A DNA stretch of 64,000 nucleotides from a virus: the IMG/VR virus record IMGVR_UViG_3300027782_000037, positions 93,277 through 157,276 of that record; one strand, given 5' to 3'. Positions 576-25,331 of this stretch are shown here, in pieces. Below the pieces are notes generated by a model that was not told where the DNA came from, searched no databases, and saw only the letters and a program-made list of their open reading frames with translations. The stretch's first letter is position 1; each line of letters begins with the position of its first letter. Position numbers and translations under genes: made by a program.

Positions 576-1595
576 TTATAGTCCAGCTCCAGCCAGAGCA
601 TATCTCGCTGTTCCCGCATTTGTTTGGCAACCAACTAGTGCTCCGCACGCATTGATACGAGTTACTAAATCAGAAAGACTGCGACCTATTCCACCATAAA
701 ACAATCCATTTGCGCCAACCGCAGCTCCAGCCAGCCCAAATCTTACTGTTCCCACATTTGTTTCAGAACCAACCAGTGCACCACATGCATTGATTCTTGT
801 TACTAGGTTGCTTTGACTGCAGCCAGAGCCAGCATAAAACAATCCATTTGCACCAACCGCAGCTCCAGCCAAATATCGTCTTGCTGTTCCCACATTAGTT
901 TGCGAACCTACTAGTGCGCCACAGGCATTAATTCTGGTTACGAGATTGCTGGAGCTACCGCAAATCTGTCCACCATAAAACAATCCGTTTGCACCAACAG
1001 TGGCACCAGCAAGACCGATCCTTCCTGTTCCCACATTTGTTTGGGAACCAACCAGTGCACCACATGCATTGATTCTTGTTACTAGGTTGCTGGCTGTGCC
1101 GGTACAGCCAGCATAAAACAATCCATTTGCACCAACAGTGGCACCAGCTAGATAATATCTTGCTGTTCCAACATTAGTTTGCGAACCTACTAGTGCGCCA
1201 CATGCATTGATTCTGGTTGCTAGGTTAGTGTAGCAACCACCAAATCCACCATAAAATAATCCATTTGATCCTACTTTTGTCCCAGCAGGATATGTTCTTG
1301 CTGTTCCCACATTCGTTTGAGAACCAACCAGTGCGCCACAAGCATTAATTCTGGTTACTAGGTTGCTGTCAGCAAAGTTAGAGCCAGCATAAAACAATCC
1401 CACAGTGGTACCGCTTGACTTACCATAAAAGTTAGTAGGCATAGTGATTGCGCCGGTTTCTACACCTGCCAGTGTTCTTACTGTAGCACAGTTCAAACTA
1501 ATCTGAGTTGTGCCAGTTCCGCCAAGTTCAAGTTGAACTGACTGTCCTGCGGTAGTTCCGCCTAATGATATTGGACCTGATGCATTTAATGCCAT
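576..1595 (-). CDS. Putative fibre-tip adhesin: N-terminal attachment domain plus six Kelch-like beta-propeller repeats
   Basis: N-terminus MALNASGPISLG...ISLN...VRTLAG...MPTNFYGKS resembles gp38-type adhesin attachment domains. Six 46-47 aa repeats GLFY(A/G)G..NLVTRINACGALVGSQTNVGTAR..LAG. Confidence 0.65.
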   Translation of the reverse strand: MALNASGPISLGGTTAGQSVQLELGGTGTTQISLNCATVRTLAGVETGAITMPTNFYGKSSGTTVGLFYAGSNFADSNLVTRINACGALVGSQTNVGTARTYPAGTKVGSNGLFYGGFGGCYTNLATRINACGALVGSQTNVGTARYYLAGATVGANGLFYAGCTGTASNLVTRINACGALVGSQTNVGTGRIGLAGATVGANGLFYGGQICGSSSNLVTRINACGALVGSQTNVGTARRYLAGAAVGANGLFYAGSGCSQSNLVTRINACGALVGSETNVGTVRFGLAGAAVGANGLFYGGIGRSLSDLVTRINACGALVGCQTNAGTARYALAGAGL

Positions 1596-1604
1596 ATCTT
1601 ATAC

Positions 1605-2120
1605 CTATGGTGTACCGAACGCAGTAACGTTATTTGCAGCAATGAGATTTCCGGTGCTGTTCAAACTAAGAATATTTGCTCCACCATAACTGAATACTAA
1701 TTTTGTGCCAACAGCAGTGATTGTAAAACCACCAACGACAACAATGTTACCAGCTGTCATATTGTTACCGGTAATATTTCCGGTAGAAGAAATTGCGCCA
1801 GCTGTTAAAATATTGCCAGTACTTGACATTAATCCAGCTGTTAAAATATTTCCGTGTATCGCATTACCAGTACTTGACATTAATCCAGCTGTTAAAATAT
1901 TTCCGTGTATCGCATTACCAGTACTTGACATTAAACCGGCAGTTAAAATATTACCGCCAGTTATGTTGCCACTGGCACTATTCACACCGGTAACCAATAA
2001 TCCGGTGCTAGTAACAGTAGCGATAGATACCGCATTACTTTGCAATACCAAATTACCAGTGAGATCACCAGTTTGGACTAAACTTGTTGTGGTTGAGGTT
2101 CCGGCTGATATATTACTCAT
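1605..2120 (-). CDS. Short fibre segment (GN-repeat) with fibre-end motif GNLIAANNVTAF
   Basis: GNILTAGLMSST repeats; C-terminus resembles the GNVTAY-type ends of phage fibres. Confidence 0.65.
   Translation of the reverse strand: MSNISAGTSTTTSLVQTGDLTGNLVLQSNAVSIATVTSTGLLVTGVNSASGNITGGNILTAGLMSSTGNAIHGNILTAGLMSSTGNAIHGNILTAGLMSSTGNILTAGAISSTGNITGNNMTAGNIVVVGGFTITAVGTKLVFSYGGANILSLNSTGNLIAANNVTAFGTP
1816..1934. repeat. Perfect 51-bp tandem repeat (~2.3 copies) encoding a 17-aa fibre unit
   Basis: ccagtacttgacattaatccagctgttaaaatatttccgtgtatcgcatta at 1816-1866 and 1867-1917, partial copy 1918-1934. Confidence 0.9.
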
Positions 2121-2129
2121 ATTTTCTCT

Positions 2130-5100
2130 TTAGATAATTACCCAACGTTGCCCAGCGGTAACTGTGACAACTACACCACTATTAGTAGTAATTGGTCCCA
2201 CACTAAATCCATTTGTACCTGCTGCTATAGTATAATTAGCTGTTACATTGCTACCGTTAACTAAAATTCCGTTTGTGGCTGCTACAACAGGAGCACTTAT
2301 TCCAGATGAAGTAAATGTCGCTACGTTAGCTGTACCCGCAACACCAACAGTTACATTACCGCCGCTTGTGGTAATGCTTACATTACTTGTACCATTACTT
2401 ATGTTTGAGCTACTACCAGTACTGATACCAGTCAGTTGACTGCCGTTACCCAGTATGAAGCTACCTGTAATATTGCCAGTTGCCGATACAATACCGGCTG
2501 TTAAAATATTTCCGTGTATAGCATTGCCAGTACTTGACATTAATCCGGCTGTTAGGATATTTCCACCAGTTACGTTACCAGTTACAGATAAATTACTAAC
2601 AATGCTTATATTACTTGTGGCGTTACTTGTTCCTGCTGCTATGGATAACGGATAAAAACTATTAGCACCAATATATAATACGCTGTTGTCAACTTGGTTG
2701 ATAAAACCACCAGTACCATTTGATGTTATTCTTAGTCTACCAGCTATCAAAGTACTGCTATCAGCAGTAGCGATGTTTCCAGTAACACTGACACTTGTAC
2801 CTGTTATAACACCACCAACCACTGATGATGCTGTGGTAGTTCCTGAGACACTTGTTGAAGTACCGGTTATAACGCCACCCACTACTGATGCTGCTGTTAC
2901 CGCACCAGTGGCACTGATCAAACCGGCTGTGTGTAGGTTGCCACCTTGTATATTACCAGAAACGTTGGCTGTTCCAGATACATCAAGTTTAGCCCCTGGT
3001 GTGGAGGTACCAATACCCACATTACCGCTATTGATATATGATGATGACGATGAGTTAGCATCAATTACTACACGCAGGACGTTGGATCCGTCTCTGGCAG
3101 CAAATTGAAAATTATTTGCTACGTCAACATAGATACCAGAGTCGTTTGTCAAACCAGTTGTTCTAGCTTGAACCGCATACGCAGCAGATGCCGCTGTTTT
3201 TGTTATTAGAAGATTACCACCCGTAACAAGATTACCGCCAGTAACAGCACCAGTGACACTGATTAATCCACCAGTTAATATGTTACCGCCAGTAATATTA
3301 GCAGCACTTGTAATAGTTGAAGTTGCTGAAATTAATCCAGCTGTTAACACGTTACCGCCGGTTACGTTACCAGTGGCGGTCACTAAACCAGCAGTTGTAA
3401 TGTTGCCGCCAATTATGTTAGCTGCCGATGTAATTGTTGAAGTTGCTGAAATTAGTCCAGCTGTTAATAAGTTACCACCAGTTACGTTACCACTTGCCGA
3501 AACTACAGAACCTAATAAACTTGATCCTGTAACAGTACCTGTTGCGCTAACTAAGCCAACAGTTGTAATATTTCCACCAACTACGTTAGCTGCTGAAGTA
3601 ATAGTTGATGTAGCCGAAATTAATCCAGCTGTCAGTAAGTTACCACCGACTACGTTAGCTGCCGAAGTAATGGTACTTGTAGCCGAAATTAAACCAGCTG
3701 TCAGTATATTACCACCAGTTACGTTACCAGTAGCAGTCACTAGACCAGCTGTTGTAATATTTCCACCAATTACATTGGCCGCCGAAGTAATTGTGCTAGT
3801 AGCACTAATTAAACCAGCTGTTAAGATATTTCCACCAGTTACATTTCCAGTAGCAGTCACCAGTCCTGTGGTTGTAATATTTGCACCAACTACATTGGCT
3901 GCTGATGTAATTGTACTCGTAGCTGAAATCAATCCAGCTGTTAGTAAGTTGGCACCGGCTATATTACCAGTTACACTTAACACATTACCAACAGTATTAA
4001 ATGTTAATCCTGCGGTAGCTGCTAAGTTACCATTGGTATTAAATTGTATCTGTGTATTTGCGCCTGCCGCTGTAATGTTACCGCTAATACTACCAGCAAA
4101 AGCTCCGACAAAGAATCCCGCTGTGGTAATGTTACCAGTAGCACTTATCTGTCCAGCTGTTAGAATATTGCCATGTATCGCGTTACCAGTACTTGACATT
4201 AACCCCGCTGTTAGAATATTGCCACCAGTAATATTAGCTGCACTTGTAATAGTACTTGTAGCTGAAATTAAACCAGCTGTTAATAAATTACCACCTGTAA
4301 TATTCGCAGCACTTGTAATAGTGCTTGTTGCTGAGATTAAACCAGCTGTCAGTATATTACCACCAGTTACGTTACCGGTAGCAGTCACTAGTCCAGCAGT
4401 TGAAAGGTTACCACCGACTACGTTTGCTGCTGATGTAATTGTACTTGTTGCTGAAATCAATCCAGCTGTCAGTATATTGCCACCAGTTACGTTACCAGTA
4501 GCCGTCACTAATCCAGCAGTGGTAATATTACCACCGACTACGTTACCTGTAGCAGTTACCAAACCTGCGGTTGTAATATTACCACCGATAATATTAGCTG
4601 CCGAAGTAATGGTGCTTGTAGCCGAAATTAATCCAGCTGTTAACAAATTGCCACCTGTTACGTTACCAGTAGCAGTCACCAGTCCTGCGGTTGTAACATT
4701 GCCACCAATTACGTTACCAGATGCACTAACAACAGTACCCAATACACTTGATCCTGATACCGTTCCTGTTGCTGAAATTAACCCAGCTGTTAATAAGTTA
4801 CCGCCTACTACGTTGCCAGATACAGTTAATAAATTGCCAACTGTGTTGAATGTCAATCCAGCAGTAGCAGCTAAGTTGCCGCTATTATTAAATTGTACTT
4901 GAGTGTTGGCACCGGCAGCAGTTACGTTACCACTAATACTACCAGCAAATGTTCCAACAAAGAAACCTGCTGTGGTAATATTGCCAGTAGCACTTACTTG
5001 ACCTGCTGTTAAGATGTTACCATGTATAGCATTGCCTGTGCTACTCATTACGCCAGCAGTTAGGATATTTCCGCCGGCTAAGTTTCCAGTAGATGTAATT

Positions 5101-7079
5101 CCAAGGCCCGCTGTTATATTACCAACTGAACTAATGCCTAAACTAGATACCCAGACATTAGATGCTGTGTTATATAATAGTGTTGCGTATTCCGCGCCCG
5201 CAGGACCAACTCCAATACCGCCATTGTTAGCTGCTGTTGCGTTGGCAGCGTTATTGGCCATATTAATTTGTAAATCATTTGTGGTAATTGTATTTGAATT
5301 AATTGTGGTTGTTGTACCGTTAACAGTTAAGTTACCGGTAATAACAACGTTACCATCAGTACCACCTGATCCATTTGGATCAATAGTTAATGTTGGGCCA
5401 GCACCTACAATTAAGTTACCACTTAGTGTGATACCACCAACTGATATAGTTCCACTTGTTGTGAAATTACCACCAGTCGTGTTGCCTGTTACGCTTAAAC
5501 TTGTTAATGTACCTAAACTAGTGACATTTGGCTGTGCCGCTGTAGCAAGAGTACCTGTAATTAATGTACCTGATAAATTACCGCCGGCAATATTACCAGT
5601 TGTACTGATTAATCCACTTGATGTTAAACTAGTTAATGTACCAACCGAAGTAATATTTGGTTGAGCATTTGTTGTAACAGTTGCAGCAGTTCCAACAGCC
5701 GATCCTGCTGATACAGCAAATGTTGCGTTTGCTACAGTACCAGTTACGTTACCACCGGTTAATGATGTTAATGTAGAACCATTACCAATGTAATAGTTTG
5801 CTGTTATATTTCCAGTTGAACTAATCAATCCTGCTGTTAGAACATTGCCGCCAGTTACATTAGCAGTAGCACTTACCAGACCGGCAGTAGTAATATTACC
5901 ACCAACAACGTTTGCTGCTGATGTAATTGTTGAAGTTGCCGAAATCAATCCAGCTGTTAATAAGTTACCGCCAGTTACGTTTGCAGTTACCGAAACTACA
6001 GCGCCTAATAAACTTGATCCTGTGATAGTTCCGGTTGAACTAATTAATCCTGCTGTTAATAAATTGCCGCCAGTAATATTACCATTTCCAGCTATAGTTC
6101 CAAGTACACTAACACCAATTGGTGAAAATACAGCAACGTTGCCAACTGTGCTAACTGATATAGTTACATTTGCGTTTGCCGCAGCAATGTTTAGATTACT
6201 TCCACCGTTTACAACATTGGATACACTTGTAATAATACCAGTAAGTTGCGATCCATTACCCAGTATAAAGTTACCAGTGACGTTTCCTGTTGCTGAAACT
6301 AAGCCGGCCGTTAAGATGTTGCCGTGTATTGCATTGCCAGTACTGCTCATTATACCGGCTGTTAGGATATTTCCACCAGTTACATTACCAGTAGCAGTTA
6401 CTAATCCAGCGGTAAGAATATTTCCACCGATTACGTTTGCTGCGGATGTAATTGTACTTGTAGCTGAAATCAATCCGGCTGTTAATATATTACCGTGTAT
6501 GGCGTTGCCAGTACTGCTCATCAATCCAGCAGTTAATAAATTGCCACCAGTTACGTTACCTGTAGCAGTTACTAGTCCAGCAGTTGAAATATTGCCGCCA
6601 ATTACGTTTGCAGCGGATGTAATCGTACTTGTAGCTGAAACTAATCCGGCTGTTAATATGTTTCCACCAGTTATATTACCGCTTGCTGAAACTAATCCAG
6701 TTACATACTCTCCGGTTGGCGCAAATACCGCCACATTACCTACTCCACTTACCCCAATAGTTATATTTGCAGCAGAAGCGGAAATAGTTACATTACTATT
6801 ACCATTATTAATATTGCTTGATGATGTACTAACACCTGTTAATAAAGAACCATTACCTAGAATATAATTTCCAGTTACGTTACCAGTAGCTGAAACTAAT
6901 CCTATGGTTAGTAAGTTACCTCCTATGATGTTACCGGCTGCTGAAATGTTACCAGATGCGCCTATATTGACAAATCCAGTCGCCGACCTAGTCCAGGTAT
7001 TATTACCTGAAGAATAAGTGTAAACAATATTGTTTACTGTTGCAGTTTGCCCATCAACGGGCGATACGGGAAAAGCCAT
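2130..7079 (-). CDS. Long virion fibre protein (1649 aa) with 17/23-aa GN(I/V)TGGN(I/L)LTAGLISAT repeats
   Basis: Extensive Gly/Asn/Thr/Ala repeats. N-terminus MAFPVSPVDGQ..YTY..W, internal GNVGIGTSTPGAKLDV motif, C-terminus VTVTAGQRWVII. Confidence 0.75.
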   Translation of the reverse strand: MAFPVSPVDGQTATVNNIVYTYSSGNNTWTRSATGFVNIGASGNISAAGNIIGGNLLTIGLVSATGNVTGNYILGNGSLLTGVSTSSSNINNGNSNVTISASAANITIGVSGVGNVAVFAPTGEYVTGLVSASGNITGGNILTAGLVSATSTITSAANVIGGNISTAGLVTATGNVTGGNLLTAGLMSSTGNAIHGNILTAGLISATSTITSAANVIGGNILTAGLVTATGNVTGGNILTAGIMSSTGNAIHGNILTAGLVSATGNVTGNFILGNGSQLTGIITSVSNVVNGGSNLNIAAANANVTISVSTVGNVAVFSPIGVSVLGTIAGNGNITGGNLLTAGLISSTGTITGSSLLGAVVSVTANVTGGNLLTAGLISATSTITSAANVVGGNITTAGLVSATANVTGGNVLTAGLISSTGNITANYYIGNGSTLTSLTGGNVTGTVANATFAVSAGSAVGTAATVTTNAQPNITSVGTLTSLTSSGLISTTGNIAGGNLSGTLITGTLATAAQPNVTSLGTLTSLSVTGNTTGGNFTTSGTISVGGITLSGNLIVGAGPTLTIDPNGSGGTDGNVVITGNLTVNGTTTTINSNTITTNDLQINMANNAANATAANNGGIGVGPAGAEYATLLYNTASNVWVSSLGISSVGNITAGLGITSTGNLAGGNILTAGVMSSTGNAIHGNILTAGQVSATGNITTAGFFVGTFAGSISGNVTAAGANTQVQFNNSGNLAATAGLTFNTVGNLLTVSGNVVGGNLLTAGLISATGTVSGSSVLGTVVSASGNVIGGNVTTAGLVTATGNVTGGNLLTAGLISATSTITSAANIIGGNITTAGLVTATGNVVGGNITTAGLVTATGNVTGGNILTAGLISATSTITSAANVVGGNLSTAGLVTATGNVTGGNILTAGLISATSTITSAANITGGNLLTAGLISATSTITSAANITGGNILTAGLMSSTGNAIHGNILTAGQISATGNITTAGFFVGAFAGSISGNITAAGANTQIQFNTNGNLAATAGLTFNTVGNVLSVTGNIAGANLLTAGLISATSTITSAANVVGANITTTGLVTATGNVTGGNILTAGLISATSTITSAANVIGGNITTAGLVTATGNVTGGNILTAGLISATSTITSAANVVGGNLLTAGLISATSTITSAANVVGGNITTVGLVSATGTVTGSSLLGSVVSASGNVTGGNLLTAGLISATSTITSAANIIGGNITTAGLVTATGNVTGGNVLTAGLISATSTITSAANITGGNILTGGLISVTGAVTGGNLVTGGNLLITKTAASAAYAVQARTTGLTNDSGIYVDVANNFQFAARDGSNVLRVVIDANSSSSSYINSGNVGIGTSTPGAKLDVSGTANVSGNIQGGNLHTAGLISATGAVTAASVVGGVITGTSTSVSGTTTASSVVGGVITGTSVSVTGNIATADSSTLIAGRLRITSNGTGGFINQVDNSVLYIGANSFYPLSIAAGTSNATSNISIVSNLSVTGNVTGGNILTAGLMSSTGNAIHGNILTAGIVSATGNITGSFILGNGSQLTGISTGSSSNISNGTSNVSITTSGGNVTVGVAGTANVATFTSSGISAPVVAATNGILVNGSNVTANYTIAAGTNGFSVGPITTNSGVVVTVTAGQRWVII

Positions 7080-8116
7080 TAGTACCTTCCAATTGCTACT
7101 TCAATTACACCTGGTAAATTAGAATTATAATCTTCCAGTGATTTACCAATGATACACCCAGGCAAGTATTTATTAGAATCTAAAACAGTGGCTACTCCTT
7201 TTATGGTACTAGAAACCAATCTATCTCCCTTACGAATTGTACCCACTACGCTGCATGGAACACGCCCCGTTAGTGCTACTGGTAATCCAACTGCGCCTGA
7301 ATTCATTAAGTAAGCAGGTTCAGTTGAAATAACACCGGCTACTCTGGTATCATGCGATATAGTTGATGCAGTAATTTCATCTGCACCGCCGAATATAACT
7401 AAAGTACCAGGAGAATAGCTGTTATCAGCAACATAAGTTTCAGCCAAGTCAGCGTATTGTGCTGAAGTTGCCTTAGCAAATACTGTATTAAAGTATGTTG
7501 TCGCATTACCAATGTTACCTACACCGTTAGCTTGTAAGTTAGTAAGACCGGCTGTTGTCCATGCTGCTATCGCAGTACCTCCAACAGTAATAGTAATATT
7601 ACCGTTACTAGCATCAATGTTAGCTGAAGTATTGCCATTTGTAATGGCATTAAATGTGCCGTTTACACCAGCTGATGCCCCAAAATCGTCAATCCAATAG
7701 TAGCTCGTGCCATCAAAAGTAAAACGATATTGAACGTTAGTTGTGGTGTTGTACCAAAAATCGCCCACGCTTGGACTTGATGGAGCTGTGCCACTTGATG
7801 TTGATCTAATGCCTCCACCAAAAATGTTACCAGAAGTACTGATAATCCCACCAGATAGTATATTTCCGCCAGTTATGTTACCAGTAACGCTTACTGTTGT
7901 ACCTGTGTGATTTGTGGCAGAAATATTGCCACCAGTTATGTTACCCGTAGCGGAAATTAATCCAGCGGTTAGTATATTTCCGCCAGTTATGTTACCGGTG
8001 GAAGATACTAATCCAACAGTTACTACATTTCCCCCAATAACGTTTCCTGTTACCGTTAAAAATGTCTGAACTGTTAGATTGCCATATACGTTTGATCCAC
8101 TTTGTAATTTAGCCAT
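7079..8116 (-). CDS. Fibre protein with C-terminal intramolecular chaperone/autocleavage (peptidase G2-like) domain
   Basis: SAQYADLAE...AGVISTEPAYLMN...VALTGRVPC...IGKSL C-terminal domain; internal PSVGDFWYN...DGTSYYWID module. Confidence 0.65.
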   Translation of the reverse strand: MAKLQSGSNVYGNLTVQTFLTVTGNVIGGNVVTVGLVSSTGNITGGNILTAGLISATGNITGGNISATNHTGTTVSVTGNITGGNILSGGIISTSGNIFGGGIRSTSSGTAPSSPSVGDFWYNTTTNVQYRFTFDGTSYYWIDDFGASAGVNGTFNAITNGNTSANIDASNGNITITVGGTAIAAWTTAGLTNLQANGVGNIGNATTYFNTVFAKATSAQYADLAETYVADNSYSPGTLVIFGGADEITASTISHDTRVAGVISTEPAYLMNSGAVGLPVALTGRVPCSVVGTIRKGDRLVSSTIKGVATVLDSNKYLPGCIIGKSLEDYNSNLPGVIEVAIGRY

Positions 8117-8123
8117 AACTTAA

Positions 8124-8366
8124 TTATGATATTCCCGTCACTTCATCAAAAATTCCGTTAGATCCCGATACATTACCAGTCTGCATAGTTCCATCAGTTA
8201 AAATACGTAACGGAACGTTAACGGGTTGTGTAACTTCATCAAATACACTAGCAAAACACGCACTATTAGCAATCCGAGCGTTACTGTAAGTAACTTCATC
8301 AAATTGAATCGTGTTTGCCAGCAATAAATTGCCTGTATTAAATAACCTAGCTGCTAAAAATGCCAT
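8124..8366 (-). CDS. Small fibre adaptor with three FDEVT motifs
   Basis: 80 aa, AARL...FDEVT...FDEVT...FDEVTGIS; SD-like AGGAG upstream; similar to both ends of 11736-12602. Confidence 0.7.
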   Translation of the reverse strand: MAFLAARLFNTGNLLLANTIQFDEVTYSNARIANSACFASVFDEVTQPVNVPLRILTDGTMQTGNVSGSNGIFDEVTGIS

Positions 8367-11300: not shown

Positions 11301-11714
11301 AGCGGCAGCAGAAATGTTAACATTACTATTGCCGTTTACTACGTTAGATACTGATGTAATAATACCAGTTAATTGACTACCGTTACCTAGTATAAAGTTA
11401 CCGGTTACGTTGCCAGTGGCAGACACCACGCCTGTAGTTAATATATTTCCAGCTTGTACATTACCGGATGCGCTGATTCCACCACCACCGCCACTTGTTA
11501 TGAACGAGTTACCATAAACGTTACCAGTGGCACTAATAATACCAGCAGTTGATATATTGCCGCCAATTACGTTTGCCGCCGAAGTAATAGTACTTGTAGC
11601 ACTAATTAATCCTGCTGTCAGTAGGTTACCGCTAGTGATGTTGCCAGTAGCTGTGATGAATGTTTGTACGTATAAATTACCGTATACCGTGGTGCCTGAT
11701 AGAAGTTTTGCCAT
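8379..11714 (-). CDS. Long virion fibre protein (1111 aa), paralogue of 2130-7079
   Basis: Same repeats and near-identical non-repeat blocks as 2130-7079. N-terminus MAKLLSGTTVYG, C-terminus YNTSLQSVDFTFG. Confidence 0.75.
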   Translation of the reverse strand: MAKLLSGTTVYGNLYVQTFITATGNITSGNLLTAGLISATSTITSAANVIGGNISTAGIISATGNVYGNSFITSGGGGGISASGNVQAGNILTTGVVSATGNVTGNFILGNGSQLTGIITSVSNVVNGNSNVNISAAAANVTISVSGVGNVAVFSPTGISVLGTIAGSGNVTGGNILTAGLISATSTITSAANVIGGNISTAGLVTATGNVTGGNVLTAGVMSSTGNVTGGNLLTAGLISATSTITSAANITGGNILTAGIVSSTGNITGGNLSGTLVTGTLTTAAQPNVTSLGTLTSLSITGNTTGGNFTTGGTLSVGGIVISGNTIVGAGPTLTIDPNGSGGTDGNVVITGNLTVNGTTTTINSNTITTNDLQINMANNAANATAANNGGIGVGPVGAEYATLLYNTASNVWVSSLGISSVGNITAGLGITATGNLAGGNILTAGIMSSTGNAIHGNILTAGVISATGNITTAGFFVGAFAGSISGNITAAGANTQVQFNTGGNLAATAGLTFNTVGNLLTVSGNVVGGNLLTAGLISSTGTITSAANVIGGNISTAGLVTATGNVTGGNVLTAGLISATSTITSAANIIGGNITTAGLVTATGNITSGNISTAGLVTATGNIAGGNLLTAGLISATSTITSAANVIGGNISTAGLVTATGNVTGGNVLTAGLMSSTGNAIHGNILTAGLISATSTITSAANIIGGNLLTAGLISATSTITSAANVIGGNITTAGLVTATGNVTGGNILTAGLISATSTITSAANITGGNLLTAGLISATSTITSAANVIGGNLTTIGLVTATGNVIGGNLITAGLISATGDITGANITTSGANATIGSSTANATYNLGSGATGNALIKNINIGTSGIANSNTIITIGTSAGNGNATFTANTTVIIANTSGSALSVAGNVTGGNILTAGLMSSTGNAIHGNILTAGQVSATGNITTAGFFVGTFAGSISGNITAAGANTQVQFNTGGNLAATAGLTFNTVGNLLTVSGNVVGGNLLTAGLISATSTITSAANVIGGNITTVGLVTATGNVTGGNILTAGLMSSTGNAIHGNILTAGFVTATGNIITSASFKMANSANAAGPGAQMTYNTSLQSVDFTFG

Positions 11715-13337: not shown

Positions 13338-13367
13338 CTTTTTTTCCAATTATAGCATTATTTAGTC

Positions 13368-17945: not shown

Positions 17946-17951
17946 AGTGGT

Positions 17952-18004
17952 CTCCCTTGACAATGTTATTTAGCCAAAAACGGTCAAATAACATTGTCGG
18001 TGAG
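17952..18004 (-). promoter_or_regulatory. Hairpin overlapping a late promoter and the SD of the downstream fibre gene
   Basis: 13-bp perfect inverted repeat 17959-17971/17986-17998; CTAAATA at 17967-17973; CTCACC (18004-17999) can pair with GGGAG (17956-17952). Confidence 0.65.
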
Positions 18005-18006: not shown

Positions 18007-21000
18007 TTATAGTCTTCCAACCAATATTTCTATTACTCCCAGATTTCCAGCAAAACCAGTTATTGCTTTACCTATTACTGTACCCATTTTAGGGTTAGTT
18101 TCGGCTCTAGCTCGTCCATTTCCAGCAGACACCATCATAGCACCAGCGGTAACTGGACCTTGAACCAAACAAGGTACGCGACCTACTAGTGCAAGGGCTA
18201 CTACAAATTTTCCGGTTAATCCCGAATTCATTTGATACGCCGGATTTGTACTAATAATTCCAGCAATCAGTGGGTCATTATCCTGAGTACTAATGGTTAA
18301 TTCTTCTTCGCCGCCAAAACTTAATACTGTTCCGGGGGTATATTCCGCATCTGCTAAGTACAATTCTGCTAAGTCAGCGTATTGTGCTGATGTTGCGTTG
18401 GCAAATATTGTGTTAAAGTAATTGCTTGAGCTACCAATATTTCCTACCGCATTAGCATTTGAATTAACAATATTTCCCACAGTAATTGTGCCAGTACCAA
18501 CTGATAAGTTGCCACCTGTTATATTACCAGCTGCGCTAAATGCCGCTGATGCTGCCAATGTAGCAGCAGTTACAGCAAGAGTGGCTCCACCTGCTATCCC
18601 TGTATTCCCTGTAACTTGAATACGAGCATCATAGTCCACAACAGTAGCACTACTATTAAAGTCAATATAAGGAGTACTAGCAACGCCATCAATGCGTCCA
18701 ATATTAACAGCTCCACCACCGTCCGTTGCTATGTTAACTCTACCCGTAGCAGTGCTTACTGTAATCTGCGCTGCCGAAGTAATATTACCGGTGGCACTTA
18801 CAAAACCCCCAGCAGTGATATTACCAGTTACCGATAAATTGCTTAGGGTACCAACACTAGTGGCAACTACGCCAGTCAACGCCGAACCATTACCATTAAA
18901 GAAATTACCGGTTACATTACCAGTAGCACTTACTAAACCACCAGTTAATAAATTACCAGTTTGAGTAGTGCCTGATACCGATAAACTTGTTAATATGCCA
19001 ACAGAAGTAATGTTTGGCTGTGCTGCGGTAGATACAGTACCTGCTGTTGTGGCAGATGTAGCAGCCCCCACAGTCAATGACGACGCTGTACCAGTTAACC
19101 CAGTACCAGCACCACTGAAACTTGATCCAGTAACGGTGCCAGTAGAACTGATCAATCCAGCAGTTAATATATTTCCGCCAGTTACATTACCAGTAACAAC
19201 CATGGCATTTGCGGCAGAATTAAATGTAAATCCCGCACTTGCATTTGCTTGACCAGCATTATTATAAATGACCTGTGTATTAGCACCTGGTACTGTTATA
19301 TTACCTGAAATATTACCCGTTAAATTACCAATAAAATATGGCGCAGTAATATTTCCTGTGGCACTGATTAATCCAGCAGTTAATATATTACCACCAGTAA
19401 CATTAGCTGTTACTGCCAAACTTGTTAAGGTACCAACTGAGGTAATATTAGGTTGAGCATTTGTTGTGACAGTAGCCGCAGTAGTAGCTGAATCAGCAAT
19501 TATGCCAGTTAATAATGAACCGTTGCCATTAAAGAAGTTACCGGTTATATTACCGGTAGCACTTACCCGTCCAGCAGTTAAGATATTTCCGCCAGTTACA
19601 TTACCAGTAACCACTATAGCATTTGCAACAGAATTAAAAGTAAATCCTGCACTTGCATTTGCTTGCCCATCATTATTATAAATGACCTGTGTATTAGCAC
19701 CAGGTACTGTTAAGTTACCTGAGATATTACCTATTAAATTACCAATAAAATATGGCGCAGTAATATTTCCTGTGGCACTTACTATGCCAGCAGTCAATAT
19801 ATTACCACCAGTAACATTTGCTGTTACTGCCAAACTTGTTAATGTACCAACTGAAGTTATATTTGGTTGTGCATTTGCTGTAATAGTAGCGGTAGTACCT
19901 GATGACACTGCATATGTCGCATTAGCCACAGTTCCAGACACATTGCTACCAGTAATTGATGATAATAATGCTCCATTGCCAATTATACGACCACCAGTAA
20001 TGTTACCAGTAACCACCAAGGCATTTGCAGCAGAATCAAATGTAAATCCTGCACTTGCGCCAGCATTGCCATTGTTATTATAAATGACCTGAGTATTTAA
20101 TCCTGGAATCGTAATATTACCAGTAACATTACCAAAAAGTGTACCGACGAAATATCCTGCTGTTGTGATATTACCAGTGGAACTTATTTGTCCAGCTGTT
20201 AAGATATTACCACCAGTTACGTTTGCAGTTACAGCTAAACTACTTAAAGTGCCTACTGAAGTAATATTTGGTTGTGCATTTGCTGTAACAGTCGCCGAAG
20301 TACCAACAGCACTACCCGCTGATACTGCATATGTTGCATTAGCCACATTACCTGATACATTTGCACCGGTAATGGAACTTAATGTTGCGCCATTGCCAAT
20401 TATGTAACTACCAATGACATTACCAGCAGCACTGGCGTAACCACCAGTTAATAAGTTACTACCAGTAACAGTACCAGTCGATACTAAACTATTTGATGCA
20501 AAATCAAAGGTAAGCCCGGCACTTGCGTTTGCTTGTCCATTGTTATTGTAAATGACCTGTGTATTTGCCCCGGGAACTGTTAAATTACCCGAAATATTTC
20601 CTATTAAATTTCCAACAAAATACGGAGCAGTTATATTACCGGTAGATGAAACAATACCGGCAGTTAGTAAATTACCACCACTAATATTGCCGGTTGCGGT
20701 TAATGATCCAGCTGTGGCAATATTTCCGCCAATGATATTAGCAGTACTAGTAATAGTACTTGTTGCTGATATTAGACCAGATGTTAGTAAATTGCCGCCG
20801 GTGATATTTGCTGCTGCGGTAATTGATCCGGTAGCTGATACTAGCCCGGCGGTAACTAAGTTGCCACCAATTATATTACCACTTGCCGATACAACCGCAC
20901 CTAGGTGACTTGACCCGGTTACCGCCCCTGTTGCACTAATTAATCCGCTGGTCAATAGATTGCCAGAGCGTGTGTTTCCAGTTACACTTAAACTCGTGAG

Positions 21001-23334
21001 TGTACCAAGGCTTGTAATATTTGATTGGGCGTTTTCTGTTACTGTACCCGAAAAACCAGAGGATGCGGCATATGTTGCATTAGCCACAGTGCCAGAGACA
21101 TTTGCACCACTAACTGCATAGGCTGTGTCGGCTATAGTAGCACGAGATACGGTACCACTTACATTACCACCTTGTATATTGCTTAATGTATTTCCTGCTC
21201 CAATAAATTGAACACCACTGATATTGCCAGTAACACTTATATTATCAGCAGTTAGGTTACCGCTAAATGTAGGCAAATAGTTAGCTACATTAGCATTACC
21301 GTAAGTTGTAGTGATACCTGTTAATTGGCTACCGTTACCAATAAAATAATTACCAGTAATATTACCAACAGCCGTTATAGTTGCGGCAGATACAATATTA
21401 CCTGCCGCAACATTACCGGTGGCGGTAATTAACCCAGCAGTTGTAATATTACCAACTGTAGCATTACCCGTAGCTGACACTAATCCAGCAGTGGTAATAT
21501 TACCAACTGTAGCATTACCAGTTATAGAAATTAACCCGCCTGTAAAAATATTGCCGTAGGTAACATTACCAGCCGCACTTATTATACCGGTAGTTATAAT
21601 ATTACCAGCGATGATATTACCTGTGGCCGATATAAGACCATCGGTGGCTAAATTGCCACCAGTAATATTTGCGGCTGAAGTAATTGACCCGGTAGCTGAT
21701 ACTACTCCAGGGGTCACTAAATTACCGCCGGTAATGTTACCAGTTACCAACAGAGCATTCGCTGCAGAATCGAATGTAAATCCCGTGCCTGCTCCAATAT
21801 TACCATTGAGATTATACAATACCTGCGTATTAGAACCGGGTATAGTAATATTTCCTGAAATATTTCCTATTAAATTACCAATAAAATTAGGTGCAGTAAT
21901 ATTACCAGTTGTGCTTACTGGATTTAGCAAATTAAATGAATTGCTGGTCATTGTGGCAAACAAACTATTTGCCGTAGTAAATTGTATATTGCCCGATGGA
22001 GTAATGTTTATTGAACTATTACCGTAGGAATTAGATAGCGAACTTATCGAAGTAAGGTATGTAATAAATCTAATGTCAATAATATCAGATGACATTGGAA
22101 TTTGTGAGAATGTAATCGAATTTCCCGTAACAGTATAGGATAAGTTAGGTACTTGATTTACGCCATTGATTGCGACTAAAATTCCTGCTGCGGTTGATGA
22201 TTCCACCAACAAATATGAATCAGATACACCATCTGGTGTGATCTGTTGATCTATAATAGTTCCCGGTGATATGACGTTGGCACCTGTTACCCAGCTGGCA
22301 CCATCCCAAGTTTCAATACTGCTTATTATAGTATTAAATCGTGTTACCCCTATGGCGGGGCTCGACGGACGTTGTGCTGTATTACCCGCCGGAATACCAA
22401 TTCCAGCGGAACCTGCAAATAATATTAAATTACCATTACTGGCAAATGTTGTATCCACTATACTAATATTGGCGATATTGGCATTTCCGCTTACAGATAT
22501 ATTTGCCAAAATGCCGACTGATTCTAGACTTGAATATAGTACATTTGCGCTTAATGTGTTTCCTATTAATGCATTAGCATAAACCGATGCGGCTGCAATA
22601 CCGGTTAATTGACTACCATTACCAATAAAATAGTTACCAGTAATATTACCAGTGGCGGTGACTAATCCGTTCGTTATAATATTACCACCAGTTACATTAC
22701 CTGTGGCCGATACCAATCCAATAGTTAATACATTACCACCGTCGATGTTAGCCGAACTGGAAATAGTTGATGCGGCGGAAATTAATCCAGCTGTTAATAA
22801 ATTGCCACCAGTTATATTAGCTGTTGCCGATATTGAACCAGGAGTTAGTATATTACCACCAGTAATATTGCCGGTTGCAGACAACCGCCCCCCTGTTAAT
22901 AAATTACCGCCTAATATATTAGCCGAGCTGGTAATCGTCCCTAGGACACTAACACCGTTAATGGAAAATACTGCGATATTACCCACGGTACTAACAGATA
23001 TTGTTACGTTAGCATTAGCTGAGGCGATATCCAGATTACTACCACCGTTTACTACGTTCGAAACAGAAGTAATAATACCAGTTAATTGTGATCCGTTACC
23101 TAAAAAATAATCGGCAGAAATATTGCCAGTAGCGGTAACTGTTGATAAAGTCAACGAGTTTGACCAAACTCTTGTGTTATTAGTTGATATTGTTAAAATA
23201 CTACTATTGGCACCAGCACCTAAACTGGGTTCTGCTTGCCCCAATGATAAGAATTCGTATCTAGATGAGTCAAGATTAGCGTAAGGTACTACGGGCGACC
23301 GCCCACTTAGCAGTTTTGTTGTGTTTATTGACAT
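18007..23334 (-). CDS. Long virion fibre protein (1775 aa) with C-terminal intramolecular chaperone (peptidase G2-like) domain
   Basis: GN repeats and repeated PGANTQVIYN knuckles; C-terminal SAQYADLAE...NPAYQMN...VALALVGRVPC...IGKA domain paralogous to 7079-8116. Confidence 0.75.
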   Translation of the reverse strand: MSINTTKLLSGRSPVVPYANLDSSRYEFLSLGQAEPSLGAGANSSILTISTNNTRVWSNSLTLSTVTATGNISADYFLGNGSQLTGIITSVSNVVNGGSNLDIASANANVTISVSTVGNIAVFSINGVSVLGTITSSANILGGNLLTGGRLSATGNITGGNILTPGSISATANITGGNLLTAGLISAASTISSSANIDGGNVLTIGLVSATGNVTGGNIITNGLVTATGNITGNYFIGNGSQLTGIAAASVYANALIGNTLSANVLYSSLESVGILANISVSGNANIANISIVDTTFASNGNLILFAGSAGIGIPAGNTAQRPSSPAIGVTRFNTIISSIETWDGASWVTGANVISPGTIIDQQITPDGVSDSYLLVESSTAAGILVAINGVNQVPNLSYTVTGNSITFSQIPMSSDIIDIRFITYLTSISSLSNSYGNSSINITPSGNIQFTTANSLFATMTSNSFNLLNPVSTTGNITAPNFIGNLIGNISGNITIPGSNTQVLYNLNGNIGAGTGFTFDSAANALLVTGNITGGNLVTPGVVSATGSITSAANITGGNLATDGLISATGNIIAGNIITTGIISAAGNVTYGNIFTGGLISITGNATVGNITTAGLVSATGNATVGNITTAGLITATGNVAAGNIVSAATITAVGNITGNYFIGNGSQLTGITTTYGNANVANYLPTFSGNLTADNISVTGNISGVQFIGAGNTLSNIQGGNVSGTVSRATIADTAYAVSGANVSGTVANATYAASSGFSGTVTENAQSNITSLGTLTSLSVTGNTRSGNLLTSGLISATGAVTGSSHLGAVVSASGNIIGGNLVTAGLVSATGSITAAANITGGNLLTSGLISATSTITSTANIIGGNIATAGSLTATGNISGGNLLTAGIVSSTGNITAPYFVGNLIGNISGNLTVPGANTQVIYNNNGQANASAGLTFDFASNSLVSTGTVTGSNLLTGGYASAAGNVIGSYIIGNGATLSSITGANVSGNVANATYAVSAGSAVGTSATVTANAQPNITSVGTLSSLAVTANVTGGNILTAGQISSTGNITTAGYFVGTLFGNVTGNITIPGLNTQVIYNNNGNAGASAGFTFDSAANALVVTGNITGGRIIGNGALLSSITGSNVSGTVANATYAVSSGTTATITANAQPNITSVGTLTSLAVTANVTGGNILTAGIVSATGNITAPYFIGNLIGNISGNLTVPGANTQVIYNNDGQANASAGFTFNSVANAIVVTGNVTGGNILTAGRVSATGNITGNFFNGNGSLLTGIIADSATTAATVTTNAQPNITSVGTLTSLAVTANVTGGNILTAGLISATGNITAPYFIGNLTGNISGNITVPGANTQVIYNNAGQANASAGFTFNSAANAMVVTGNVTGGNILTAGLISSTGTVTGSSFSGAGTGLTGTASSLTVGAATSATTAGTVSTAAQPNITSVGILTSLSVSGTTQTGNLLTGGLVSATGNVTGNFFNGNGSALTGVVATSVGTLSNLSVTGNITAGGFVSATGNITSAAQITVSTATGRVNIATDGGGAVNIGRIDGVASTPYIDFNSSATVVDYDARIQVTGNTGIAGGATLAVTAATLAASAAFSAAGNITGGNLSVGTGTITVGNIVNSNANAVGNIGSSSNYFNTIFANATSAQYADLAELYLADAEYTPGTVLSFGGEEELTISTQDNDPLIAGIISTNPAYQMNSGLTGKFVVALALVGRVPCLVQGPVTAGAMMVSAGNGRARAETNPKMGTVIGKAITGFAGNLGVIEILVGRL

Positions 23335-23335
23335 A

Positions 23336-23668
23336 TTAGCCTGTTAATGTTTCTAGGTAACTCAAAACTAATTGTCCACTAGTATCGTCGCTTGCTGAAA
23401 GTTGTAATTCGTCCCCGTATTGTAAAATCAACCTACCTGTAAGAATACTTGCTGCATCATCTGTCGGAACACTATAGTTGTTGATCAATGACGTAGACAC
23501 ACTTGATCTAAGTATACTGGCAGAAACTTGAATAGTGTCAACACCGGTATTACTAATCTGTGCTAATAACACCACTGTAGCATATCCTAACGGAGGAGTA
23601 TACACGGTTGTCGTAGTAGTAGTAATATCTACTAAAGTTGTTCTAAATAAATTTAATGCGCCCGACAT
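23336..23668 (-). CDS. Small beta-rich virion adaptor protein
   Basis: 110 aa, LNLFRT...VYTPP...VVLLAQISN...LILQYGDEL...LSYLE; tightly coupled between two fibre genes. Confidence 0.65.
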   Translation of the reverse strand: MSGALNLFRTTLVDITTTTTTVYTPPLGYATVVLLAQISNTGVDTIQVSASILRSSVSTSLINNYSVPTDDAASILTGRLILQYGDELQLSASDDTSGQLVLSYLETLTG

Positions 23669-23690
23669 AGTTTTTCCTTTTTTTTACTAA

Positions 23691-25331
23691 TTAATCGCCT
23701 GATATAGCTAAAATGTACGGTGTCATTTGAGCAAATAAACTTTTATAAAAAGCATCACCTGTAATAGTTGCAGTCGCTTGATTAACAATAAATCCGTCGC
23801 CTACCTTAAAATTACCCTTTTGATCTGTACTTGTATAGGTTACAACTCCGCCACCAGTTTGTACCACTTCGTTGGCTTCAATTGGAATTCCTCCGTATTG
23901 GGGCAATGCGGTAGCAGGATTTGTTCCTGCACCCACATACTCAAACGTATGAGCCGATGCAATAATACTGCTGCGAGTGTATAGTGAGAGTGTTGTGCCT
24001 GGAGCAGCATTTCCTAAATATATTTGCTGTACCAAAACTGTACTACTACCAACTGCTGGAACATTAGGTAATATTGTGTCAATAGTATAAAATTCTGGAT
24101 CTCCGTCTATTACTACAACAGTATTAACATGAGGTTGGCCATTGGATAAATTATCAATTACAAAACTTCCTTGAAATTGACTTACAATAGTTCCAGAAGT
24201 TTGCAGTGGACCAATACCTTCTGCCACCAATCCATAATTTCCAATAGAACAATCTGATCCGTTAAGAGTAATGAATGATCCTGATTCAACTTTAACTCCA
24301 ATGGCACATGCAATTGTATAAATGTTAACTGATTGACTATATGCCGAATTTACAAGATGTATACCTATCCCACCTCTATTAATAATAGTAAAGAAACCTA
24401 CAATCATTGCTTTAGTTCCAGTACATACACTACCATCAACATACACAGCAGTTCCTGTTGTTGTACTTGAGGTCAGATTTTGTATATATGGACTGACAAA
24501 AGCAGTAGTTATAGTACTTGGATCGTAGCTAAATGCTTTGCCTGTATAATCTCTTACTGTTACACCCCATACATAAGATCCTCCGGACATGTAAAACATA
24601 TCACTGCTTGCTACAGTTGGCTTTATGAATACATTTCTTAAATTATCACCCATTAATGCCGTATTGGGAGGAATAGTAATAGGCATATCTTCAATATATG
24701 TACCAGGAGCAACGTTAACAGATACATTTCCCCCCAATCCGGTTGCTAATGTCATAGCAGCCTCAATTGTTAATAATGGAGAAGTTAGTCCACCCGAATT
24801 GTTATCATTTCCATTTTTTGCTACATAAATTATGTTAGAGCTGGCAGAAGTGATATTTATATTAGCGTTGATATTCTGTGCTGTTAGATTACCAGAAACA
24901 CTAATATTTCCAGCTAATGCCAATAAACCTGAACTTGGGTTAAATGTTAAATTTGCACTACCACCAAATTTTCCACTATCGTTAAATTGTACTGATGAAT
25001 TTGGTTCGGCAGGATTGTTGATATTAGCATAAGCGGTAATTGGAGCACCATTAGAACTAACATTATTACTAGTTTGCCAAGCGTTGGACGCTACATCAAA
25101 TCGTAGTCCAGCAAATGTATTAGCACCTGTTTGTCCTAGTAATCCCATGTCAGTAATTGCGCCCGTATTATTGGCGGCTACTGTTAAGAAAGGGCTTGTT
25201 GTAATCGAAGGAACATTATAAGTTACATTACCTGTAAAAACTGTCTGAGCATTAATTGTAAGAACGCCATTGCCTGCAGGAGTTCCTACATTTAACGTAT
25301 AATCAGTATTGATATTTTTAACCGAAGCCAT
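23691..25331 (-). CDS. Virion protein with pectin-lyase-like parallel beta-helix domain
   Basis: IYVAKNGND..G....PLLTIEAA...VAPGTY.E.PI.IP....L.GD.LR is a typical beta-helix N-cap; C-terminus TSTDQKGNFKVG...KSLFAQMTPYILAI. Confidence 0.65.
   Translation of the reverse strand: MASVKNINTDYTLNVGTPAGNGVLTINAQTVFTGNVTYNVPSITTSPFLTVAANNTGAITDMGLLGQTGANTFAGLRFDVASNAWQTSNNVSSNGAPITAYANINNPAEPNSSVQFNDSGKFGGSANLTFNPSSGLLALAGNISVSGNLTAQNINANINITSASSNIIYVAKNGNDNNSGGLTSPLLTIEAAMTLATGLGGNVSVNVAPGTYIEDMPITIPPNTALMGDNLRNVFIKPTVASSDMFYMSGGSYVWGVTVRDYTGKAFSYDPSTITTAFVSPYIQNLTSSTTTGTAVYVDGSVCTGTKAMIVGFFTIINRGGIGIHLVNSAYSQSVNIYTIACAIGVKVESGSFITLNGSDCSIGNYGLVAEGIGPLQTSGTIVSQFQGSFVIDNLSNGQPHVNTVVVIDGDPEFYTIDTILPNVPAVGSSTVLVQQIYLGNAAPGTTLSLYTRSSIIASAHTFEYVGAGTNPATALPQYGGIPIEANEVVQTGGGVVTYTSTDQKGNFKVGDGFIVNQATATITGDAFYKSLFAQMTPYILAISGD

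Follow-up and report, generated by a model that had tools for sequence, protein, structure and literature searches.

Candidate joints between separately encoded fibre segments in an uncultured giant T4-like phage

The DNA studied here comes from an uncultured, giant, T4-like phage whose long fibres are encoded as separate protein segments, and its fibre gene cluster raises the question of how the products of about ten consecutive genes are held together. The first-pass annotation had proposed that recurring motifs chain all of them into one modular appendage. The window, meaning the whole stretch of DNA that was analysed, is 64,000 nucleotides long, and the cluster occupies its positions 576 to 25,331. 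Our reading, to which we give a probability of roughly 65%, is that the cluster encodes several virion fibres, whose separate segments would be joined end to end in gene order by a few types of joint. The parts, with their putative roles, are as follows:

23691..25331, minus strand: 546-aa fibre or spike protein, head of the cluster (phrog_17885, tail fibre, E 1e-61)
23336..23668, minus strand: 110-aa conserved partner of the 546-aa protein (phrog_1276; 43% identical to S-SRM01 gp330)
18007..23334, minus strand: 1775-aa fibre with an N-terminal unit of ~470 aa, a repeat shaft and a C-terminal chaperone-like domain
22030-22383, minus strand: INGV module of the 1775-aa protein, residues ~318-435 (motif position)
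18010-18492, minus strand: chaperone-like domain of the 1775-aa protein (C-terminal region 40% identical to the 345-aa protein)
13416..17963, likelier ATG at 17945, minus strand: 1515-aa proximal fibre segment with the start tag LTRINNNQITD (synteny in five lineages)
~13599-13943, minus strand: INGV module near the C-terminus of the 1515-aa protein (motif position)
12612..13349, likelier ATG at 13337, minus strand: 245-aa short segment that starts LTRIRAGQISD and carries the end tag ..VYQIYNAGTTSLDTIFI (phrog_11518, tail fibre, E 6.6e-28)
11736..12602, minus strand: 288-aa large connector, an FDE triple-repeat module interrupted by a ConA-like lectin between repeats 2 and 3
8379..11714, minus strand: 1111-aa middle fibre segment with the start tag MAKLLSGTTVYGNL and the end tag ..MTYNTSLQSVDFTFG
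8124..8366, minus strand: 80-aa small connector, the FDE triple-repeat module only
7079..8116, minus strand: 345-aa distal segment with the start tag MAKLQSGSNVYGNL (start-tag profile E 8e-14)
7082-7564, minus strand: chaperone-like domain of the 345-aa protein, residues 185-345 (atlas neighbours)
2130..7079, minus strand: 1649-aa fibre with a MAFPVSP..GQ start and a ..GQRWVII end (motif positions)
1605..2120, minus strand: 171-aa segment with an MSNISAG start and a ..NNVTAFGTP end (motif positions)
576..1595, minus strand: 339-aa tip protein with six Cys-bearing repeats of ~46 aa (repeat motif spacing)

All motif strings listed in the first-pass annotation are present in the genes to which it assigned them, on the minus strand. 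In the 1515-aa and 245-aa proteins the tag LTRI...QI(T/S)D stands at residues 11 and 7, respectively, or at residues 5 and 3 when counted from the likelier ATG codons. Both the 245-aa and the 1111-aa proteins finish with YN..S(L/V)D..F, which takes up their last 13 residues, A.RL with three FDE motifs occurs in the 288-aa protein (residues 19, 39 and 281) and the 80-aa protein (residues 22, 42 and 73), and MAKL.SG..VYG is at residue 1 of both the 1111-aa and the 345-aa proteins. A start-tag profile run over the six frames of the window matched only the ORFs of these last two proteins (E 8e-14 each; next 0.7), and an alignment of the 288-aa and 80-aa connectors, with both paralogues from six genomes, has 16 invariant columns; the recurring motifs are thus not due to chance. 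Two placements had to be corrected. The INGV module is present in both proteins but is not terminal: INGV..DIIDxR lies in the N-terminal quarter of the 1775-aa protein and ends ~80 residues before the C-terminus of the 1515-aa protein. GDFWY..DGTSYYWID, taken to be a protein end, occupies residues 118-150 in the 345-aa protein, ahead of a C-terminal domain of 160 residues.

Motif statistics across genomes, the check proposed for the earlier annotation, bore out the set of end tag, connector and start tag. Its order, a fibre ending YN..S(L/I)D..F, next a small connector bearing three FDE motifs and last a fibre starting MA.L..GT..YG, is strongly non-random in hundreds of viral contigs. The start-tag scan sampled 112 gene starts, and the matches listed gave 93 distinct N-terminal 36-mers. 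The FDE protein was directly upstream in 83 of the 112 viral start-tag genes; about ten further ones follow 5'-truncated ORFs with lectin-like or glycine-rich ends, and 17/112 come after a different protein of ~1000 aa ending ..SWTEAQA, so the start tag is not exclusive to the connector. In the control, the FDE protein was found in 81/109 upstream ORFs and in 4/645 other ORFs (odds ratio 464), with all adjacency counts drawn from related, non-independent contigs, by crude ORF calling and among the matches listed. The proteins upstream of the connector carry the end-tag pattern in 55/59 cases, and the remaining four are visible variants. Gene context of representative connector homologues was taken from DNA-pattern scans. 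An independent scan with FDEVTGI recovered the same gene order in distant contigs, with start-tag variants after the connector and the end tag before it wherever the upstream gene was visible; two small ORFs separate connector and start-tag gene in L015 and L061, and in L030 and L076 the contig breaks off on one side.

The order of six genes, from the 1515-aa to the 345-aa protein, is kept in five relative lineages. Shaft lengths there differ ~2- to 13-fold, and against this free length change the terminal 30-mers are 40-75% identical. Orthologues of the 1515-aa protein measure 1389-1759 aa with termini that are conserved (75% identity over the last 30 residues), those of the 1111-aa protein 574 to 1345 aa, again with conserved termini, and the proteins at the position of the 345-aa protein 125-1598 aa with an unconserved C-terminus. 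In L008/L009 two genes replace the 245-like gene, a natural module swap that leaves the end tag beside the connector. End tag, connector type and start tag come in matching flavours, and where a genome has two joints, these differ in flavour. The two start tags of the window are very similar (14/19 identical), so an ordering code is not evident at the start-tag position here. Among cultured phages, Synechococcus phage S-SRM01 has an end-tag fibre, a connector and a start-tag fibre in the same order (gp331-gp332-gp333). Megablast with the entire cluster as query found no match among cultured phages, nor did tblastn with the 80-aa connector and a 77-aa relative; only P0154, a distant member of the connector family, reached S-SRM01 by tblastn. 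A literature search for virion proteomics of connector carriers found none. In conclusion, the pattern of end tag, connector and start tag is real and general, and these comparisons support the view that the motifs behave as joints.

The connector is a domain of ~70 residues comprising three homologous repeats of ~22 residues, each with an FDE end. In the 80-aa protein, a profile of any one repeat recovers the remaining two, while no shuffled control was found at E < 0.01; the connector is a true internal triplication. Its AlphaFold2 model is all beta (pLDDT 85.7, pTM 0.70), with no PDB match by Foldseek at E <= 0.001 (best 1.1), none by VIA-align at Z >= 2 among 48,161 chains, and a single match in BFVD, an uncharacterised 74-aa homologue; 228 representative homologues were collected. 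The 288-aa connector aligns with the 80-aa connector at both ends, and its residues 70-200 match Laminin_G_3 (PF13385, ConA-like lectin) with 39.7 bits against a gathering cut-off of 27.6. It has 27 close homologue clusters of 288-289 aa, and AlphaFold2 with 12 sequences returned no confident fold (pLDDT 36). Among 149 representative connector proteins the FDE module is alone in 32, N-terminal in 38, C-terminal in 23, split in 51 and internal in 1, and in none (0/149) is it fused to an end tag or a start tag. Long proteins with a C-terminal FDE module were considered as fusions of the connector to the upstream fibre end, and rejected: they carry other N-terminal domains, none with the end tag.

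Such a separate polypeptide, its gene directly behind that of a fibre whose C-terminus is conserved, might also be a chaperone of fibre assembly comparable to Tfa or T4 gp38, the genes of tail-fibre chaperones being usually found in just this place. It would then help the upstream fibre trimerise via its C-terminal tag and bridge nothing, while the start tag would anchor elsewhere. We regard this as unlikely. A chaperone serving only the upstream fibre does not predict that 74-83% of start-tag genes directly follow the connector; no Pfam or PHROG chaperone family matches the connector; and its varied extra domains (lectin, glycine-rich, large N-terminal), in connectors of up to about 1650 aa, suit parts exposed on the virion better than transient helpers.

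The joint reading also draws on a second motif pair. That a protein with the INGV module precedes an LTRI start was confirmed elsewhere, in 76/97 sampled loci. This adjacency, too, is strongly non-random in viral contigs, and in the control the module occurred in 87/110 upstream proteins versus 123/870 other proteins. In L003 and L007 the LTRI-start fibre is preceded by a 304-aa-like protein without the module. Residues 66-471 of the 1775-aa protein and 1105-1492 of the 1515-aa protein are 34% identical. The INGV protein of relative L293 matches Phage_T7_tail (PF03906), the N-terminal tail-attachment domain of T7 gp17, at residues 271-345 (29.0 bits, cut-off 25.2); the N-terminal 480 aa of the 1775-aa protein and five other relatives gave no significant match to PF03906. 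Many complete LTRI-start fibres have, judged by eye, a GxIEVVVGR-type C-terminus like that of the chaperone domain.

The junctions that occur once in the window fared unevenly. GQRWVII followed by MSNISAG recurs, in few other lineages only: L200 has a GQRWIIL end and then an MSTISAG start, and in L198 homologues of the 1649-aa and 171-aa proteins are fused as one protein of 1295 aa. In the search for relatives of the 171-aa protein the matches were mostly to shared shaft repeats, and few loci were informative. The shaft of the 1649-aa protein is also shared with the 1111-aa protein (63% identical across it). NVTAFGTP followed by M....G.ISL recurs in L197 and L241, but the gp38-like identity given to the last gene did not stand: positions 576-1595 match no gp38 and no Pfam or PHROG family. 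The 339-aa product, with RINACGALVG at residues 82, 128, 174, 221, 267 and 313, is probably a propeller, judging by these repeats. The pairing of GDFWY with MAFPVSP does not hold as a rule, the start MAFP.SP..GQ having many different upstream neighbours. In L033 and L392 a GD.W..DG.S.F.YDF end lies directly ahead of a MAFPSP start.

These neighbours, the start tags behind ..SWTEAQA proteins, the GxIEVVVGR-type ends, which fit stand-alone fibres, and the freedom with which relatives swap, split and fuse shafts would all suit conserved termini that are generic anchors or recombination linkers, each fibre attaching alone to a hub or baseplate and adjacency reflecting a conserved operon only. We consider this quite improbable: end tag, connector and start tag remain adjacent across very different genomic backgrounds and connector architectures, their flavours match even where one genome has two joints, and linkers for DNA recombination need no protein-level conservation across lineages whose connectors are <50% identical.

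Where a fibre stops is suggested by the C-terminal domain of ~160 residues shared by the 345-aa and 1775-aa proteins, which probably resembles the Peptidase_G2 (PF11962) intramolecular chaperone. In the atlas, the neighbours of the 345-aa protein (feature score 0.98, structure TM 0.96) belong to clusters with PF11962 in 11-37% of members; a search of the PDB with its sequence gave no match. Both window proteins are below the Pfam threshold, and homologue P0040 reaches 16.2 bits against a cut-off of 25. Fibres and spikes with a Peptidase_G2-like domain have it at their C-terminal end, and the closest known counterparts of the domain seen here are the Peptidase_G2 and S74 intramolecular chaperone domains of phage fibres and spikes; self-cleavage is putative for the window proteins. 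The argument that this YADLAE domain must mark a chain end is weakened, since cleavage, if it occurs, exposes a new C-terminus, and by the L033 and L392 junctions. The 1775-aa and 345-aa proteins are probably fibre ends, so the window most likely encodes more than one fibre, with three or four fibres or branches in all.

At the head of the cluster, the C-terminal ~135 residues of the 546-aa protein are conserved and match families annotated tail fibre or baseplate wedge; the protein is 36-46% identical to S-SRM01 gp329, whose gene likewise stands first in the order found there. Fibre genes of uncultured aquatic phages are routinely mislabelled, and the S-SRM01 homologues of the cluster proteins are annotated 'baseplate wedge subunit'. 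In L072 a 108-aa protein ahead of the first fibre has a C-terminal sequence resembling the 110-aa protein by eye. A head appendage had been proposed from gene position only, and the tail-fibre and baseplate-wedge matches speak against it; nor is the cluster far from the baseplate genes, which are in the same window (49386-63998), and in T4 itself the long-tail-fibre genes are remote from the baseplate genes. A single appendage of great length made of all ten or so products, possibly branched and perhaps borne by the head, is very unlikely: at least four junction types of the cluster recur elsewhere, the internal INGV unit of the 1775-aa protein could be a branch point at which the 1515-aa fibre docks, and S-SRM01 shares the order in outline, from the 546/110 homologues through an annotated RCC1-repeat protein (with no similarity detected to the 339-aa repeat protein), but two members end in the chaperone-like domain, L003 and L007 are without the 546/110/1775 block, genes are fused or split elsewhere, the chain in relatives stops at the chaperone-domain protein with non-fibre genes next, GDFWY lies inside its protein and no constant partner goes with the MAFPVSP start.

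Herein, we describe how several segmented fibres might be assembled. The clearest unit would be the six genes 1515 -> 245 -> [288] -> 1111 -> [80] -> 345 aa, with two successive joints. Each would bring together a C-terminal tag, a small connector protein and the N-terminal tag of the segment that follows. The connector may cap the three-fold end of the upstream trimer and offer a docking place to the downstream trimer; a single chain with three repeats would suit a three-fold axis. Extra domains, here the lectin, would project sideways, like the T4 'knee-cap' gp35. A second type of joint, formed without a connector, would pair the INGV module, which may resemble the T7 fibre N-terminus, with the LTRI..NQI.D start. 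Binding, stoichiometry and attachment to the tail are parts of the proposal that we infer.

The recurrence of tags and connectors side by side in other phage genomes points to an unstudied joint system that would work like the tail-fibre knee of T4. The T4 long tail fibre is built as (gp34)3, a gp35 monomer as 'knee-cap', (gp36)3 and (gp37)3, and the gene of the small non-fibrous protein lies between those of the proximal and distal segments, in the order 34-35-36 (PMC5537660). The window likewise has separate segments in assembly order (245 -> 288 -> 1111 and 1111 -> 80 -> 345), and a gp35 monomer between trimers parallels the proposed role of the single-chain connector. It differs in having two joints in series with paralogous connectors, and its connector is a triple repeat of ~70 residues whereas gp35 is a globular protein of 372 aa. 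Homology was rejected for both parts: the FDE profile scored -0.2 bits against gp35 (E 0.15, database of four sequences), and gp36 was absent from the start-tag profile matches at E <= 10 among 118 sequences. The gp36 sequence 'MADLKVGSTTGG' resembles the start tag by eye, without significance.

Two other systems are partly comparable. PAAR-repeat proteins and T4 gp5.4 each cap a trimeric beta-helix with one chain of internal three-fold pseudo-symmetry, and the connector similarly has three related repeats in one chain, suited to a three-fold axis; however, it has no structural similarity to any PDB chain (Foldseek, VIA-align), and PAAR proteins cap a spike tip and do not bridge two fibres. 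Branched receptor-binding-protein systems, such as those of Klebsiella phages and Ackermannviridae, dock via conserved N-terminal anchor domains, and like the fibres proposed here they combine conserved terminal docking modules with exchangeable bodies. In those systems, in contrast, the anchor domain of one protein docks onto the platform of another, and we know of no separate triple-repeat connector or C-terminal tag among them.

A wider claim, tentative and less likely than not, is that the FDE domain is an undescribed, widespread joint protein, a single-chain pseudo-three-fold snap whose matched flavours would set the order of segments and whose side domains would add binding sites; with the INGV/LTRI pair it may form a joint set for multi-segment, possibly branched fibres of aquatic T4-like and jumbo phages. 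To our knowledge, a trimer-monomer-trimer joint has so far been known only from the T4 knee, the structure of which is unsolved. If the claim is true, the FDE connector would be a second, unrelated solution to this problem, and each knee would gain a further binding site through plug-in side domains such as lectins and beta-helices. Such a joint would account for exchanges of shafts and tips that leave assembly intact, would allow fibre segments to be ordered and annotated from sequence alone, and would provide a natural plug-and-play interface for studies of host recognition in laboratory phage-host pairs.

The sequence is the final 64 kb of a 157-kb IMG/VR viral contig with a completeness of 45% (CheckV). 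In its major capsid protein it shares 62-67% identity with the jumbo myoviruses Vibrio 2.275.O, Sinorhizobium Phosso, Pseudomonas PA5oct and Erwinia pEa_SNUABM. Genes for the portal, prohead protease and capsid are on the minus strand, immediately upstream of a fibre cluster for which no nucleotide-level matches were found among cultured phages. Fibre proteins are named here by their length.

Fibre and baseplate genes of the window.
25331-576, minus strand: fibre cluster of 12 genes, encoding proteins of 546, 110, 1775, 1515, 245, 288, 1111, 80, 345, 1649, 171 and 339 aa
49386-63998, plus strand: baseplate genes (gp5-, gp25-, gp6- and gp7/10-like)

The window also holds two homing-endonuclease-like genes, one between the capsid gene and the fibre cluster (28389-29228; phrog_314) and one beside gp46/47-like genes (45047-45478; phrog_447, phrog_7363). 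The long fibre proteins consist of ~20-residue repeats of the type GN(I/V)TGGN(I/L)LTAGL(I/V)SAT. Strong paralogy spans genes 2130-7079 and 8379-11714, and also 18007-23334. The 1649-aa and 1111-aa proteins are paralogous, with 63% identity across ~1230 columns, a span that includes a near-identical non-repeat block of ~150 residues (TIDPNGSGGTDGNVVITGNLTVNG...), which points to a recent duplication or gene conversion inside the cluster. Long plus-strand ORFs over the fibre genes (3253-4902, 5845-6867 and 9535-11376; 340-613 aa) are proline/valine-rich and mirror the GN.TGGN repeats; they are almost certainly repeat artefacts rather than genes.

The first-pass annotation had read matched motifs at gene junctions as chaining about ten fibre genes into one modular appendage, possibly on the head. 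All of its motif strings were found in the window. Of these, the end tags, connector motifs and both the MAKL and LTRI starts truly sit at protein ends, whereas INGV in the 1775-aa protein (module at residues ~318-435) and GDFWY in the 345-aa protein (residues 118-150) are internal. Adjacency of the motif pairs in other genomes, a check that it had named, was borne out for two patterns among the matches listed. In pattern A, a protein with an INGV module precedes a fibre starting LTRI..NQI.D (76/97). In pattern B, a connector gene with FDE motifs precedes a fibre with the start tag MA.L..GT..YG (83/112 immediately upstream), and is itself preceded by a protein with the end tag YN..S(L/I)D..F. 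The flagged joints are a real, general system, for which binding, stoichiometry and virion location are what we infer.

For pattern B, a DNA scan for FDEVTGI recovered connector proteins at 17 loci, and the genes again stood in this order. The end tag preceded the connector at every locus with a visible upstream gene, and variants of the start tag followed it; two loci (L030, L076) are cut at one side, and at two others (L015, L061) two small ORFs separate the connector from the start-tag gene. Some of the loci carry two joints in series, with differing tag flavours. The start-tag scan, which underlies the count of 83/112, yielded at least 112 gene starts that have an ORF upstream (93 different N-terminal 36-mers among the matches listed). 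Among the same matches, about ten further start-tag genes had 5'-truncated upstream ORFs ending in lectin-like or glycine-rich domains, and the end-tag pattern was present in 55/59 of the proteins preceding a connector, the remaining four being obvious variants. As a control at the same loci, connectors made up 81/109 of the immediately upstream ORFs versus 4/645 of other same-strand ORFs (odds ratio 464 among the matches listed); the loci are mutually related contigs, so independence is overstated, and the effect is still very large. A second start-tag context was seen in 17 genes among the matches listed, each lying 0-4 nt behind another kind of protein, ~1000 aa long and ending ..R(L/I)SWTEAQA, without an FDE connector (for example L095, L099, L137, L143, L148, L151, L158 and L161). 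The order is reversed in L006 and L034, where the SWTEAQA-type protein comes after the MAKL-start fibre.

For pattern A, a scan for TRI(K/N)NNQITD gave at least 97 matches at N-termini preceded by an ORF, and some of the INGV proteins upstream end exactly in ..IDVRFL. The control gave 87/110 immediately upstream versus 123/870 (matches listed). The last ~400 residues of the 1515-aa protein share homology with the first ~470 residues of the 1775-aa protein, so the INGV unit is a discrete module; elsewhere among phages it occurs as a stand-alone protein of about 190-980 aa. The INGV module of one relative passed the threshold of Pfam Phage_T7_tail, the tail-attachment domain of T7 gp17, and the window's own copies fell below it. 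Many LTRI-start fibres among the matches listed end, as read from their printed termini, in GxIEVVVGR-type sequences like that of the chaperone-like domain, and hence look complete by themselves.

The 80-aa connector corresponds to the 288-aa connector minus its ConA-like lectin domain (Laminin_G_3, 39.7 bits), and an alignment of both paralogues from six genomes has 16 invariant columns. Each connector has three FDE motifs, and the connector module is made of three ~22-residue segments (consensus 1, LAARLTNTGNLLINGTVEFDEVTQ; consensus 2, STISITPTAVYAGEFDEVTN; consensus 3, AMRITNNGTIQVSGIFDEVT). The segment profiles detected one another (best E 4e-11), while shuffled controls gave 0/540 at E < 0.01. 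An AlphaFold2 model of the 80-aa protein from 36 sequences was all-beta (pLDDT 85.7, pTM 0.70); nothing similar was found in the PDB (Foldseek, VIA-align), and the sole match in a BFVD fold search was an uncharacterised homologue. The small-connector profile had 228 matches in 1.84 billion representative proteins, with the module alone, N-terminal, C-terminal, or split by other domains (lectin, glycine-rich, beta-helix-like). Neither tag occurred inside any of 149 representative connectors, so the joint always comprises three separate polypeptides. A single-chain, three-repeat connector that would sit between two trimers recalls the T4 knee-cap gp35, a monomer (PMC5537660); no relationship was detectable between T4 gp35 or the gp36 N-terminus and the connector or start tag.

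A six-gene order was kept in nine IMG/VR loci from five lineages, across which the termini are conserved and lengths vary several-fold.

Six-gene order in the related loci.
Position 1: 1389-1759 aa, start (L/V)TRI.NNQITD, end ..SFQLVN..VRG.DG.TR
Position 2: 222-427 aa, start LT(K/R)(P/I)RA.QI.D, end VYQ.YNAS.GSLDTIF
Position 3: connector, 289 aa
Position 4: 574-1345 aa, start MAKLLSGT..YGN, end GPGGH.TYN.SL.S.DFTF
Position 5: connector, 73-87 aa
Position 6: 125-1598 aa, start MAKL(Q/L)SGT.VYGN

The C-terminus of the position-6 protein is unconserved (12% identity), as expected of a host-facing end. In L008 and L009, an 822-aa protein with the start tag and a new 250-aa protein with the end tag stand in place of the 245-like gene, and the end tag thus still adjoins the connector.

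The remaining junctions fared unevenly. The proposed step from GQRWII(L) to MS(T/N)ISAG recurs in one other locus (L200), and that from N(V/I)TAFGTP to M....G.ISL in two (L197, L241); in L198, one gene corresponds to the window's 1649-aa and 171-aa genes. The pairing of GDFWY with MAFPVSP did not hold: the MAFP.SP..GQ start is common, its upstream neighbours are varied (40/109 are chaperone-domain fibres), and L033 and L392 are the only loci where it follows a terminal GD.W..DG.S.F.YDF. By shared start and end sequences, the 811-815-aa MALLRSG-start fibre of L062 and L069 apparently equals two L033 genes (423 aa and 815 aa), with the break between a GD..W..DG.S.F.YDF end and a MAFPSP start; on these sequences, it looks like a fibre gene naturally split at a module boundary. 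At L200:4129-9477, a fibre ending GQRWIIL is followed by several small genes in a row that have an N-terminus, M..TI.A.....D.(S/T)GNL..QTN, like that of the 171-aa protein; these may be alternative tips that dock at a single site.

Synechococcus phage S-SRM01 (Kyanoviridae; locus L193, NC_070963, 212414-223362) is a cultured carrier.

Genes of the S-SRM01 locus.
gp329: 546-like
gp330: 110-like
gp331: end ..NSLDFIFI
gp332: FDE module, N-terminal (E 3e-11)
gp333: start MALLKTN
gp334: C-terminus like S74-type chaperone domains, by eye
gp335: annotated as 'regulator of chromosome condensation' (RCC1)

In the existing annotation, gp329, gp331 and gp333 are each a 'baseplate wedge subunit' and gp332 is hypothetical. 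By our analysis, the three are fibre segments and gp332 an FDE connector, so that annotation is probably wrong.

A single ten-gene appendage and its placement on the head were both left unsupported. At the C-terminus, the last 160 residues of both the 1775-aa and the 345-aa protein form a YADLAE domain, with over 5000 homologues in the 189-604-aa length class alone, that resembles Peptidase_G2 intramolecular-chaperone domains (Atlas score 0.98; a homologue's Pfam match was below threshold). In relatives, a YADLAE-type protein closes the chain and non-fibre genes follow. Homologues of the 546/110/1775 block are absent at the corresponding place in L003 and L007. A 304-aa protein without a family match (25470-26384) has homologues that immediately precede the LTRI-start fibre in L003, L007, L313 and L351; compared with those phages, this one thus carries the block as an insertion between the two genes. 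In conclusion, the cluster most likely encodes three or four fibres or branches: 546 (with 110); 1775; 1515-245-288-1111-80-345, in which 288 and 80 are the connectors; and 1649-171-339.
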